DNA of 36,434 bases from IMG/VR virus record IMGVR_UViG_3300009149_000122; one strand, written 5' to 3'. The notes below the pieces were generated by a model, which searched no databases, was not told where the DNA came from, and saw nothing but the letters and a program-made list of their open reading frames with translations. Positions 309 to 34,371 of the stretch are shown piece after piece (positions within the stretch are counted from its first letter, which is position 1; each line of letters begins with the position of its first letter). A program made the position numbers and the translations under genes. The stretch is from a virus.

Positions 309-632
309 ATGTCAAAGCCTGCTACCAATATTAGAGTTAACGGTCATGCTTACCGACTGGCTGACGAAAGGCCGTTTAACGACGAACTTCAAGAGTCTGA
401 GCAGAAGTTCTACCGTGAGCACGAGCAGAAGGCGCGTGAGCAGCTGAAGACGCTGCTCAAAGATTTTGAGCTGTACACGCTTACCTGGAATCGATATGGG
501 CCCTGTGACACCGACGCCATGTCCGATGAGGATTGGGGTAGGTTTGAGGGTCTTCGTGAACAGCGTAAAAAACTCTATGACGGCTTGAAAGAGCTCGGCC
601 GCTTGTTGGAGTGGAGCTTCGACCGGAGTTGA
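309..632 (+). CDS. hypothetical protein; N-terminus carries shared motif NIRVNGHAYRLA
   Basis: ATG at 309 with AGGAGAG SD 7 nt upstream; the track ORF starts earlier at a GTG; no recognisable domain. Confidence 0.4.
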   Translation: MSKPATNIRVNGHAYRLADERPFNDELQESEQKFYREHEQKAREQLKTLLKDFELYTLTWNRYGPCDTDAMSDEDWGRFEGLREQRKKLYDGLKELGRLLEWSFDRS

Positions 633-805
633 CCCGTATCAAAATGGCTACCAGATCCCACTAGTTTTTCCCTCCTTGACGCTTCCCTCTTCCATCTTGT
701 AAAATATGTCTGTGGGTGGCCATGCGTCCGCGCCACAACTACAAACCCTGCGGTGTGCAGGGGAACCCCAAGAAGTCCAGCGGTGCGCTGGCAGGAGGAA
801 ATAGC

Positions 806-1690
806 ATGCCTATTTACGAGTTTGATGTCCTAGTCCATGGAAAATCCGTAACGAAGTTTGTACACGAGGGGCGTGTGTACATCGAAGGGAAAGCTCGTTC
901 AGAGTTTACGTTGCTTGTGCGTAACAACTCTGCCGACCGCGTGCTCGCGGTGATGACGGTGGATGGGTTATCCGTAATGGACGGCAAGAAAGGTAGCCTT
1001 GATGGCAATGGCTACATCGTCAACGCCTGGCAGACTCTGAAGATTCCAGGGTGGCGCTTGGACAACGAGGGTGTAGCTAAGTTTGTCTTCGGTGCCATCG
1101 GTGGTTCCTACGCAGCGAAGAAGGGTGCCCCGCGTGATATTGGTGTCATCGGGTGCGCGATCTTCCAGGAGGACCGACCTGCGTACACCATCGATATGGG
1201 AGGTCTTCGCGGAAGAGTTAACATCACCGACCTTGGTGGTGGTACCACAACGAAAACTACCAGCGGTCCTTTGAGATCTCGCGGTATCTCAGAGTGTAGC
1301 GATGCTCTAAGCAGCTCCAATAGTATATTCTACAGTAATCGTGTAACAAACGGTGAAGAGGTTGTGTGCGACTCGTATGTAACCACCTCGGATGCTTTCC
1401 ATCCTGGTGGCACGTTTCGGCCGGAGTGTTCGAAGGGTGAAGAGCAGACGTCGGGAGGTGTCCAAGTGCAGAACATAGGAACGGAGTTTGGTAAACGTAC
1501 TGCGCACTCGGTCACCGAGGTCACGTTCAACAAAAAGGATCGCCCGACAGAAGTGTTCTCCGTGTACTACGACGATGGTGCCGGGTTGGAAAAGCGCGGT
1601 ATTCATTTGAAGCGGGCGATTCAGGTAGCGCATCCATTTCCTAAGGATGCCGAAGAAGGCTGCGATCCTCCTGCGGGATGGCGCGGCTAG
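806..1690 (+). CDS. hypothetical protein
   Basis: ATG at 806 preceded by AGGAGGAAAT SD (track ORF begins 716); Gly-rich, no recognised motif. Confidence 0.4.
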   Translation: MPIYEFDVLVHGKSVTKFVHEGRVYIEGKARSEFTLLVRNNSADRVLAVMTVDGLSVMDGKKGSLDGNGYIVNAWQTLKIPGWRLDNEGVAKFVFGAIGGSYAAKKGAPRDIGVIGCAIFQEDRPAYTIDMGGLRGRVNITDLGGGTTTKTTSGPLRSRGISECSDALSSSNSIFYSNRVTNGEEVVCDSYVTTSDAFHPGGTFRPECSKGEEQTSGGVQVQNIGTEFGKRTAHSVTEVTFNKKDRPTEVFSVYYDDGAGLEKRGIHLKRAIQVAHPFPKDAEEGCDPPAGWRG

Positions 1691-1763
1691 CTCATAATAG
1701 AGGACTGCGTTAGGAACCAATTGGCTTAGCTCATCCTAACTCTATCCTGCTACTATTACTCAG

Positions 1764-1787
1764 GTCCCCCGGGGATCCCCGGGGGAC
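1764..1787. repeat. perfect 24-bp GC-rich palindrome GTCCCCCGGGGATCCCCGGGGGAC (possible RNase III/terminator-like hairpin or protein site)
   Basis: exact inverted repeat read in sequence; no downstream U-tract. Confidence 0.5.
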
Positions 1788-1806
1788 ATTATATAAGGAG
1801 TTCCTC

Positions 1807-2217
1807 ATGAGCATGTATAATACGGTAATGGGCGTGAATCCCTTGGCCGGAGACCTGCTATCATTTCTGGCTTGCAAACCCACCGAGTTTGGGCGTCTTC
1901 GTGACGTGTGGTTGGATGATCAACACGGTGACTTGCGTATCGTGGTGCACACCCGGTGCGGCGGTGGAAATCGTGACGCCTACGACGACATGTTCAAGCT
2001 CATGGTACAGCATCCAGACTATATCCGGGATTACGACTGTGACTTTGACGACACCTACGCAAATATTGAGTTTCATCTTCCAGAGTCAGCGAAGACGATC
2101 ATCACTGCGTTGCTGGAGGAAGCTGATAAACAAGGTGTCCGCGATAAGTTGGTGGACAATAGATCTCAAGCCGAGCGCTGGACCGTGGTCATGGCGAAGT
2201 TAAAAAATGGGGAATAG
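1807..2217 (+). CDS. hypothetical protein
   Basis: AAGGAG SD before ATG; acidic, no known motif. Confidence 0.4.
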   Translation: MSMYNTVMGVNPLAGDLLSFLACKPTEFGRLRDVWLDDQHGDLRIVVHTRCGGGNRDAYDDMFKLMVQHPDYIRDYDCDFDDTYANIEFHLPESAKTIITALLEEADKQGVRDKLVDNRSQAERWTVVMAKLKNGE

Positions 2218-2458
2218 TTCAGATGCGTTTTTGAAAATGGTAAGGCGGGTGCAAGAATTGGAAGGGGACTCTTTCAATCAGTTGTCCGACGTACTCGGTG
2301 ACTCTTTTTCCGAGACGTTGGCTCGTCAAGAATTTACCTCCTCGGTATTGGGTAAATCGTCGCCCGTTATAAAAAAGGTCATGACAACGTGCAATTATTG
2401 TGGCAGAAAGCTACCCGATGGTACCGACGAGTGTAAGAGCTGTGGAGCTCCTATTTAA
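2207..2458 (+). CDS. small protein with C-terminal zinc ribbon (CNYCGRKL...CKSCGAP)
   Basis: CxxC...CxxC motif; paralogous to C-terminus of small ORF 7675-7833. Confidence 0.35.
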   Translation: MGNSSDAFLKMVRRVQELEGDSFNQLSDVLGDSFSETLARQEFTSSVLGKSSPVIKKVMTTCNYCGRKLPDGTDECKSCGAPI

Positions 2459-32756: not shown

Positions 32757-32764
32757 GGTTAACC

Positions 32765-33349
32765 ATGAACACCTCGTTTCTTTACCGACTTACTGGGATG
32801 TTGGTGGAGGCGCAGGACCCGCCAGCTGCGCCCGTTGATCCTCCAGTGCCCGATCCAGCTACTATGGGAACTCCCGCTCCACCAGTCGCAGACCCCGCTT
32901 TGCAAAACGTAACGGATGACCCTGCGGCTGATCAAGCGGCTCCCGCGGAGACGCCGCCTCCTGCTGACGGTACTGCCCCTCCTCCAGAAGAGGAAAAAAA
33001 TAGCGACGTTGACAATTGGCAGCTACATCTTCCCACCGTAGCTACAGAGATTCAGGAATCATTGCAGTCCCCGGTGTCAATCGACCCTGCTACCAGTAAG
33101 ACAACTCCTGTAGCCGGTAATGATCCTGACTTGAGCTATCGAATATCCGGGGTAGTTCAATTTCCACAGGGGATACCTCCGGATATAGCAGAGAAGCTGC
33201 GCGGGCGTCCTTTGATGTATTCCGTGACGGTTAATCCAGAGGGCGAGTTGATCGACGCATCGCTTAACTTATTCTTCACTACTTCTGATACGTATGAAGC
33301 AGGAGAAGAACCAATCTACCACGTAAACCCAAACACATACGGATCGTAA
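32765..33349 (+). CDS. proline-rich hypothetical (possible structural/scaffold)
   Basis: PPAAPVDPPVPDPA low-complexity. Confidence 0.3.
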   Translation: MNTSFLYRLTGMLVEAQDPPAAPVDPPVPDPATMGTPAPPVADPALQNVTDDPAADQAAPAETPPPADGTAPPPEEEKNSDVDNWQLHLPTVATEIQESLQSPVSIDPATSKTTPVAGNDPDLSYRISGVVQFPQGIPPDIAEKLRGRPLMYSVTVNPEGELIDASLNLFFTTSDTYEAGEEPIYHVNPNTYGS

Positions 33350-33403
33350 GTTAGCCTATAGATAATTGCTACGGAGACTTATCTCCAGTCAAACAGGTTT
33401 ATC

Positions 33404-33814
33404 ATGGCAGTCCGCTGGAACTTAGTATGGGGACGATCCCAATCTAATTGTTGTCCACCTAGTTGTTACAACTTCACACAGTCGTGCGGTGACAACAGTA
33501 TGGGCAACATTTTTGACGGGTTTCCTCTGACAATCCAAACGTTTGGTGAAGCAATCTCGTTCCTGGCGAGCGTAGTCAAGGATAGCCTTTCTGCGCAGAG
33601 CGTGGTGGTGTCTTCAAACTACTCCACTATCTTTAACTTGACTATTCGGCTCGGATTACAAAAGTGTGACGTTGCCCAGGTGAAGCTGCAGTTTGCTAAT
33701 ACCGGTGGCAGTTTCCCCGTAACCGTTACCTACACAAAGGGAACCAGTAGCGGTTCTTCCTCGTTTCAAAGTTTTGACCAGGTTATCGCATACCTGTCTC
33801 AAGTGTTGGCGTAG
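33404..33814 (+). CDS. hypothetical protein
   Basis: ORF only. Confidence 0.3.
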   Translation: MAVRWNLVWGRSQSNCCPPSCYNFTQSCGDNSMGNIFDGFPLTIQTFGEAISFLASVVKDSLSAQSVVVSSNYSTIFNLTIRLGLQKCDVAQVKLQFANTGGSFPVTVTYTKGTSSGSSSFQSFDQVIAYLSQVLA

Positions 33815-33844
33815 TCGCTCTGTCTGCAGCTAACGTGTGCTACT

Positions 33845-34126
33845 ATGGTCATCAAAGCCAACAACGCCCCGTTAGCAGTTCTGCTTACTATCCAAGCTTT
33901 TGACATTGATGGGTTACCCATCCCCCGTCTGGTGTATTTAGACACAACCGCTATGCAAGGAAAAACCTTGGTAATCGAGGGAACACAGACAACGTTTAAA
34001 TCCGTGAGAGTTTTACGTTTCTGTTTTTTGTCTCCATCTCTTGCGGTGAGTGAACTTTTGCGTAATTTTCTACCCGAAGAGCTTCACAGTCACGTTGTAG
34101 TTGACGACGCGAAAGGACAAAAATGA
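33845..34126 (+). CDS. hypothetical protein
   Basis: ORF only. Confidence 0.3.
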   Translation: MVIKANNAPLAVLLTIQAFDIDGLPIPRLVYLDTTAMQGKTLVIEGTQTTFKSVRVLRFCFLSPSLAVSELLRNFLPEELHSHVVVDDAKGQK

Positions 34127-34371
34127 GTAACGTTGTGTCCAGTAATAAAACATTTCCTCCAAAGAGGTTACTATATAAGGGATTTCACTATGTCCTTGCA
34201 GAGCGTGGAACTCCCTCTTCTGTAACCGAGATAATACCGATTGTAGAAGAGTTGTTAGTAGCCCTTAAAGACATAGCCGCCGATGAGCATACGCTTGTTT
34301 CCAATAAACAGATCATTGCTGGTCTGTGGCCCCCGATACGTGAGTACTTCAAACTACTGATTCCTCAGTAG
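34123..34371 (+). CDS. hypothetical protein; N-term shared motif KRLLYKGFHYVLA
   Basis: AAAGGA SD, start overlaps upstream stop. Confidence 0.3.
   Translation: MSNVVSSNKTFPPKRLLYKGFHYVLAERGTPSSVTEIIPIVEELLVALKDIAADEHTLVSNKQIIAGLWPPIREYFKLLIPQ

Follow-up and report, generated by a model that had tools for sequence, protein, structure and literature searches.

A short cationic beta-hairpin-like peptide recurs in otherwise unrelated proteins of IMGVR_UViG_3300009149_000122, a 36,434-nucleotide stretch of viral DNA that we call the window and that is a 36.4-kb fragment of a large tailed phage (jumbo phage). The motif is real and lies far above chance. A motif and hidden Markov model (HMM) search over related phages, the check that an earlier sequence-only reading of the window had proposed, gave 50 distinct copies, spread over at least 15 families, and the hairpin proved to be a portable terminal module, or tag, of one clade of uncultured jumbo phages, carried by families unrelated to each other. 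Our preferred reading, to which we assign a probability of about 0.45, is that the hairpin docks its carriers onto a component of the prohead and so loads core proteins and effector enzymes into the capsid.

The sequence-only reading had named six open reading frames (ORFs), identified here by their first positions (309, 2786, 4059, 17283, 22675, and 34123), and the motif is present in all six at the places it had indicated. Its pattern, [KR]-x-[VIL]-[RK]-x-x-G-x-x-Y, holds strictly for four copies (3665, 4083, 17292, and 22690, the first being the internal copy of ORF 2786) and is missed by one position in the others, namely those of ORF 309, ORF 34123, and the N-terminus of ORF 2786. The extended pattern [VIL][RKL]xxGxxYx[LYRV][AVLM] matches eight times and no more, always in a coding frame of the six named ORFs and never in a noncoding frame of the window. 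A second, tandem copy in ORF 17283 (STVRYAGTTYNLV) goes beyond the original list, and a degenerate copy lies in ORF 23129, bringing the window to eight clear copies and one degenerate copy in seven otherwise unrelated proteins (lengths in amino acids, aa; scores from an HMM built from the copies):

318..362, + strand: hairpin copy 1, KPATNIRVNGHAYRLA, at the N-terminus of ORF 309-632 (107 aa); 23.8 bits
2810..2854, + strand: hairpin copy 2, NCSYRVRHNGYVYALL, at the N-terminus of ORF 2786-4075 (429 aa)
3659..3703, + strand: hairpin copy 3, ELPKRVRHNGAVYTRV, at aa 292-306 of ORF 2786; 26.9 bits
4077..4121, + strand: hairpin copy 4, SLPKRVRWRGQLYLRM, at the N-terminus of ORF 4059-4616 (185 aa)
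17286..17372, + strand: tandem hairpin copies 5 and 6, RPKLVKYQGYLYQYV and PSTVRYAGTTYNLV, at the N-terminus of ORF 17283-18554 (423 aa)
22684..22728, + strand: hairpin copy 7, KLPRIIRYQGFVYRLA, at the N-terminus of ORF 22675-23124 (149 aa)
34156..34200, + strand: hairpin copy 8, FPPKRLLYKGFHYVLA, in the N-terminal part of ORF 34123-34371 (82 aa)
23984..24028, + strand: degenerate hairpin copy 9, LPNKLLLGGKVYRKL, near the C-terminus of ORF 23129-24079 (316 aa)

The first of these ORFs has a Shine–Dalgarno sequence, AGGAGA, ahead of its ATG at 309. N-termini similar to that of ORF 2786 are found in the proteins P0015 and P0016, and where ORF 23129 has the degenerate copy, its orthologs at the related loci L009 and L015 have a clear one (EIRYKGKLYRQA and EIRYKGARYKKA).

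When the residues of the proteome were shuffled, 0.06 matches to the extended pattern were expected against the 8 observed, and 0.07 matches to the original pattern against 4; neither count was reached in any of 2,000 shuffles. Within the first 40 residues of proteins, 7 copies were observed and 0.007 expected under residue shuffling. The HMM gave its own copies 22–28 bits and the next six-frame match in the window 5 bits, and no match above 9 bits was found in ~670 kb around 80 other phage genes for the major vault protein (MVP) or in 124 kb of the three nearest cultured jumbo phages. By shuffling, six-frame scanning, and comparison with other phage DNA alike, the motif is thus not abundant at random positions. 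At third codon positions, the pairwise identity of the copies is 0.07–0.53; therefore, selection acts on the peptide, and a DNA repeat was ruled out as the source of the motif. Outside the hairpin, BLASTP found no kinship between the carriers (all E > 0.08), in agreement with the earlier description of them as otherwise unrelated proteins.

For the clade collection of 50 copies, G at position 0 and Y at +3 were required. The resulting consensus is L-P-[KR]-x-[VIL]-[RK]-[YF]-[KR]-G-x-[LVT]-Y-[RKQ]-[RLQ]-[AV], in a module of ~15–20 residues. Upstream of the Gly, L occurs at −8 in 30%, P at −7 in 72%, K/R at −6 in 42%, and V/I/L at −4 in 100% of the copies; beside it, K/R at −3 in 60%, Y/F at −2 in 88%, and K/R at −1 in 72%; and downstream, K/R at +4 in 54% and A/V at +6 in 78%. 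The hairpin is followed by a short, variable, and often acidic linker, with D/E enriched at +10 (39%) and +11 (33%).

The sequence-only reading had called the motif basic and beta-hairpin-like, and both attributes hold: the net charge of the hairpins in the window is +1 to +5, and AlphaFold2 predicts a two-strand hairpin in two unrelated carriers. The predicted strands, at residues 7–10 and 13–16 of ORF 22675 and 9–13 and 16–20 of ORF 4059, fall exactly on the motif. The predicted local distance difference test score (pLDDT) of the hairpin is <50 in ORF 22675, vs. 80–89 in the domain body, and 56–77 in ORF 4059, vs. 93–98 in the domain body. In these models, the [KRQ]-G pair forms the turn; given a turn of two residues, hairpin geometry would have the conserved V/I/L, Y/F, and Y share one face, with most of the basic residues opposite.

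Pfam searches with the whole carriers and with ten motif-bearing peptides gave nothing usable, and a known domain was rejected as the identity of the motif. For the ten peptides, hmmscan at E up to 10 returned no more than two families, each matched by a single peptide (CBM_5_12, E 0.66; DUF5086, E 0.043), so the motif was not recognized as part of a known DNA-binding fold. It may bear some likeness to WW and arm-type/AP2 hairpins, and its likeness to CBM_5_12 goes no further than the E value of 0.66. In the giant-phage literature, we found no described targeting motif of this kind; only the T4, SPN3US, and encapsulin systems surfaced.

No similarity of the window to deposited phages was found at the DNA level, and the closest cultured phages by the portal protein (~30% identity) are the jumbo myoviruses Vibrio GR7B, Ralstonia RSL1, and Pseudomonas PaBG. 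The syntenic relatives were drawn from metagenomes and IMG/VR, one of them being the 349,793-bp contig IMGVR_UViG_3300018080_000098 (the 350-kb relative), ~32 kb of which is covered by this analysis. The IMG/VR relatives came from alignment-based scans; single-sequence scans of IMG/VR with ORF 22675, ORF 34442, the portal, and ORF 10151 gave no matches. For a profile of the motif alone, at ~25 bits, the estimated E value in 1.8 billion proteins is ~1.

Comparison of these relatives shows that the tag is under purifying selection. In the family of ORF 22675-23124, a core gene upstream of the terminase that is conserved in all relatives, residues L4, P5, Y10, G12, and Y15 are invariant at 48–78% identity and the linker after them has indels. 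The hairpin is likewise kept in orthologs of the ORF 4059 family and, at 30% identity, in syntenic orthologs of ORF 34123.

The tag has also been gained, lost, and moved between orthologs, changes that can be seen directly, and two broad families consist mostly of homologs without it. The domain family of ORF 4059 comprises 811 representatives (50% clustering), most of which begin directly at the domain start, LYHVT; ~15 of the best 150 homologs carry the hairpin just upstream of it, set off by a variable spacer of 5–9 residues, and some of these share only 31–39% identity with ORF 4059. Members of the ORF 17283 family have the hairpin twice in tandem (P0160 and P0161), once (P0164), or not at all (P0162, P0165, and P0167, which start at the conserved YWTPPAN or later); in P0163 it is C-terminal, at residues 423–432 of 444. 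The motif had been described as N-terminal, and most copies in the window are; in the relatives, it also occurs at domain junctions and at C-termini (L108 17934-18569, L007 17-844 on the − strand, P0163, and L109 6727-7059).

Fusion has left traces as well. At locus L012, a dual-specificity-phosphatase gene and an ORF 4059-type gene are separate and each opens with a hairpin, and in L009 and L013 the two are fused with both hairpins retained. Within ORF 2786 of the window, a perfect Shine–Dalgarno sequence (AAGGAG) with an ATG 6 nt after it, at 3653, stands directly ahead of the second hairpin (3635-3655), which suggests either an internal translation start or a fossil or recent fusion of two tagged genes; copy 3 may thus head a separately translated C-terminal product of ~140 aa.

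The carriers differ widely in predicted function. No function could be assigned to ORF 309 and ORF 17283. The earlier description of ORF 2786 as a GNAT protein rests on matches at aa 198-270 that fall below the Pfam gathering cut-offs (Acetyltransf_7, 21.1 bits with a cut-off of 27; Acetyltransf_1, 19.2 bits with a cut-off of 20.7), and we refer to it as GNAT-like. Of the two proteins taken to have a PARP fold, one stands: ORF 4059-4616 has an ADP-ribosyltransferase (ART) fold, closest to Tpt1/DarT, with a conserved His in the first strand and the signature LYHVT...GL.PG.G..FGGGY.GHS.GR.FLT..GV.FW, although it has no Pfam match. Members of its family stand alone or sit in polyvalent proteins of 1000–2100 aa, together with ART-PolyVal. 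For this family and for the head protease, sequence searches of PDB gave no matches. ORF 17283 was not confirmed as the second: hhalign gave a probability of 1.2% against the ORF 4059 family, and its PDB profile searches matched only designed helical repeats, leaving an ART fold in this protein putative. Carriers in the relatives include a phosphatase with an HCxxGxxRS motif and a weak Pfam DSPc match, DHH-type phosphoesterases (tagged at the C-terminus in L007 and ahead of the DHH motif in L109), and a DUF5661 protein; several others have no assigned function. Beside a run of carriers in L109, an accessory island encodes a protein with a Pfam Acb5 match in the precomputed annotation (2085-2444).

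The prohead as destination is suggested above all by the head-assembly module. In the window, the module opens with the portal gene, the start of the region in which relatives bear five conserved hairpin proteins:

27656..29938, + strand: terminase large subunit (PHROG 17415, E 4e-92)
30384..32756, + strand: portal protein (PHROG 16240, E 3e-90), opening the head-assembly module
34442..36289, + strand: head-module protein of 615 aa, strongly acidic (net charge −58), immediately followed in relatives by the head-maturation protease

Loci L101–L108 reach beyond the end of the window. In them, the stretch from the portal to a virion structural protein contains five conserved carrier families, which flank the head-maturation protease (PHROG 18299, E 7e-51):

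first carrier: 80 aa, the ortholog of ORF 34123, which in the window also lies in the head module downstream of the portal
280-aa carrier: N-terminal copy
211-aa carrier: copy at the extreme C-terminus
~197-aa carrier: copy at the N-terminus, then a very acidic stretch
383-aa carrier: copy near residue 290

Pfam searches of the head-module proteins of L108 gave no matches. The core genes ORF 22675 and ORF 23129 lie on the other side of the portal, shortly before the terminase.

The enzyme carriers fit the same destination. Their types resemble known or predicted packaged and injected phage proteins (PMC5512222; PMC7824862): the ART Alt of T4 is taken into the prohead core (PMC9026906), and for polyvalent proteins, whose ART and GNAT domains sit side by side, packaging in the head and delivery along with the DNA are predicted (PMC5512222). 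ORFs 2786 and 4059, GNAT-like and ART, are neighbors as these domains are in polyvalent proteins. The sequence-only reading had left the choice between a vault-like shell and the virion; given the five carriers by the portal and protease and the types of enzymes tagged, we infer that the virion is the better supported. As a shared short peptide that lies outside the folds of its carriers and behaves like a targeting or docking signal, the motif has held up, being conserved, optional, found at either terminus, modeled with lower confidence than the domain bodies, and outside any Pfam family; the vault as its destination has not.

Under our preferred reading, all carriers would dock via the hairpin onto one common phage-encoded partner. 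This partner would belong to the assembling prohead, as part of the scaffold or core, the portal, or the inner capsid surface, and therefore structural core proteins and ART-fold, GNAT, phosphatase, and DHH enzymes would all be loaded into the head. The enzymes would then be ejected with the DNA. By its charge, the scaffold-like protein at 34442-36289 could, speculatively, be the docking partner of the cationic hairpin. Two acidic head-module proteins, at 32765-33349 (−22) and 34442-36289 (−58), lie downstream of the portal and are partly of low complexity. Some head-module carriers may lose the tag to the head-maturation protease, at a site of the small/hydrophobic-x-Glu type just after the hairpin. 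The prohead proteases of T4-like (PMC9026906) and giant phages cut at sites of this type, and 14 of 25 family representatives have [LIVASG]-x-E in the 14 residues that follow the hairpin, vs. 29% in the background (nominal P 0.004 for a statistic chosen post hoc and uncorrected for relatedness). That the hairpin serves as a universal address tag, loading swappable stand-alone effectors along with core proteins for co-injection with the DNA, is possible, and we put it forward more tentatively than the docking itself.

Several observations weigh against docking onto the prohead. The motif was not found within 20 kb of the portal in Vibrio GR7B, Ralstonia RSL1, or Pseudomonas PaBG, and therefore no published virion proteome is transferable. 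Glu sites are lacking after the hairpins of ORF 4059, the phosphatase, and ORF 17283, and the C-terminal copies are unlike the strictly N-terminal signal of T4. The position of genes in the head module suggests a role in the virion and does not prove one, and for the 350-kb relative the distribution of carriers rests on the ~32 kb covered. Finally, shallow alignments, and not a free tag, could be the reason for the low pLDDT of the hairpin.

Portability and conservation would fit any common partner, and the enzyme carriers are of host-modifying types. The hairpin might accordingly dock onto a hub outside the virion, such as the RNA polymerase, the ribosome, a chaperone, or a protease of the host, used for timing or turnover, or the carriers might bind each other into a multi-enzyme assembly, in the manner of dockerin and cohesin. 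We regard this as unlikely, since it leaves unexplained why five proteins of the portal–protease–capsid module, some of them small and nonenzymatic, should bear the tag.

Binding to nucleic acid, by which the hairpin would tether its carriers to phage DNA or host RNA, appears a little less probable again. The net charge of +1 to +5 and the conserved aromatic residues on one face would suit such a role, and the internal proteins of T4 are basic (PMC9026906). The motif may also loosely recall the opening hairpin of arm-type/AP2 DNA-binding domains, which have three strands. However, the ten motif peptides match no DNA- or RNA-binding family of Pfam at E up to 10, a single two-strand hairpin is without the third strand and helix of arm and AP2 domains, and a hydrophobic and aromatic face (V/I/L at −4, 100%; Y/F at −2, 88%; Y at +3) is more typical of protein–protein beta-augmentation.

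The vault reading, in which the hairpin is a cargo signal docking its carriers into a shell of the MVP homolog, derives from one neighboring gene:

18561..21128, − strand: major-vault-protein homolog, full-length (Pfam MVP_shoulder, E 8e-25)

This gene lies next to the carrier ORF 17283, and an ART-fold carrier recalls the vault cargo VPARP; as with VPARP and vaults, an ART-fold enzyme and an MVP homolog are found in one genome. The INT domain of VPARP is a folded domain of ~160 residues, unlike the 15-residue hairpin, and motif and MVP do not co-occur across phages. Phage MVPs have already been described in a 2023 preprint (10.1101/2023.11.10.566534), and our alignment-based scan placed MVP at 106 IMG/VR loci, many on contigs of 100–500 kb. 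The best 80 of these loci were examined (~670 kb) and contained no copy of the motif, and the 350-kb relative was not among them. The MVP gene of the window lies in a variable hot spot, where of the relatives only the closest, L006, also has it. In L009, L012, L013, and L015, a phosphatase–ART gene replaces MVP at this locus and hairpins remain numerous, with at least five carriers per 20 kb; at the 14.7-kb locus of the ORF 17283 ortholog in L109, no MVP is among the genes called. The hairpin thus does not track the MVP gene, and the tempting but unsupported link between the MVP homolog and the ART-fold carrier falls away; we consider the vault reading highly improbable. The hot spot itself lies upstream of a conserved HNH gene (21370-21945) and collects accessory genes: the window has ORF 17283 and MVP there, and L009, L012, L013, and L015 instead have the dual-specificity-phosphatase and ART-fold genes or their fusion. 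In L109, the ORF 17283 ortholog is found elsewhere, beside ARPP-1.

There is just as little to be said for the absence of any shared function, the hairpin then being a convergent N-terminal cap or a chance or compositional pattern: Gly-turn beta-hairpins are common, and the pLDDT of 56–77 in ORF 4059 could mean partial packing, but the enrichment over shuffles exceeds 100-fold, ~800 kb of other phage DNA is without a copy, a 12-position consensus is common to at least 15 unrelated folds, and orthologs differ in having the tag and in the terminus that bears it.

To our knowledge, the selection of proteins into giant-phage heads, and from there into the host, is known in detail only for T4. The capsid-targeting sequences (CTSs) of T4 direct proteins to the prohead core and, like the hairpin, are short terminal peptides common to unrelated proteins of one phage. 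In both systems, an ART is among the cargo or carriers and the genes lie beside those for portal, core, and protease; the layout of L101–L108 resembles that of T4, with its portal, small core proteins, protease, and scaffold (PMC9026906). In some of our carriers, the tag may be followed by a candidate Glu-ending protease site. However, the T4 CTSs are strictly N-terminal propeptides of 10–19 residues, whereas the hairpin is longer, cationic, and also C-terminal and internal, so that it matches them as a shared short peptide and not in its location. T4 CTSs are removed by the protease, whereas here cleavage is a candidate only and many carriers are without a site; sequence similarity between the two was not established.

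Encapsulin shells have the HK97 fold, and their cargo peptides are recognized by comparing tagged with untagged homologs, a method mirrored here in the ART-fold and ORF 17283 families. The hairpin has the corresponding features: a terminal peptide at either end, a variable linker, and untagged homologs. In encapsulins and microcompartments, as here, a terminal peptide with a variable linker marks diverse enzymes, in their case for loading into the shell. Encapsulin peptides are extended or of the Gly-Ser-Leu type and those of microcompartments are amphipathic helices; in contrast, AlphaFold2 predicts a beta-hairpin here, and the presumed shell is an infectious capsid rather than an organelle. 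Polyvalent proteins and MuF effectors share with our carriers the ART and GNAT cargo and are predicted to be delivered with the DNA to counter host defense (PMC5512222). Their effectors are covalently joined in a giant polypeptide, often anchored through MuF or the portal (PMC5512222), whereas the clade studied here has mostly small stand-alone effectors, each with a hairpin, and no MuF domain was seen. By analogy, the hairpin would be the noncovalent counterpart of the T4 CTSs and of the covalent polyvalent strategy, and a hairpin-type analogue of encapsulin loading in an infectious capsid of the HK97 type.

The injected proteome, or early arsenal, of uncultured jumbo phages is currently unreadable from sequence. 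If the hairpin is a loading signal, it is a sequence-level marker of packaged effectors in one whole clade, and the injected proteome of these uncultured phages would become predictable from their genomes. Effector repertoires would then be swappable gene by gene via a 15-residue tag, which could also serve as a compact means of bringing foreign proteins into large capsids. Even with another partner, one portable peptide on at least 15 families points to an unrecognized hub.

Beyond the carriers and the head genes, the window encodes two HNH endonucleases and ARPP-1, NADAR, DHH-like, and exonuclease-like proteins. The genes for the DHH-like protein, an RNase T-like exonuclease, ARPP-1, and NADAR are interspersed with the hairpin carriers (4903-6405, 12600-13328, and 15322-16047). 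These four lack the hairpin in the window, and in relatives it is present on DHH proteins (L007 and L109). Together, they look like a set of host-conflict genes centered on NAD/ADP-ribose or nucleotides. Shortly before the terminase (25566-27247), the window encodes a 333-aa protein that is very basic (net charge +42, with an N-terminal hydrophobic segment and a weak match to a PHROG annotated as transglycosylase), together with a membrane-like 184-aa protein; the two may form a lysis or envelope-acting pair in an unusual place. Nine tRNA genes are scattered between the protein genes:

2467-2673, 4660-4823, 8926-8997, 9799-9872, 13456-13539, 13898-13981, and 16898-16972: tRNA genes

Six of the nine are tRNA-Leu genes, with six different anticodons, and for the tRNA at 8926-8997 ARAGORN made the odd call of a two-base anticodon loop ('tg').

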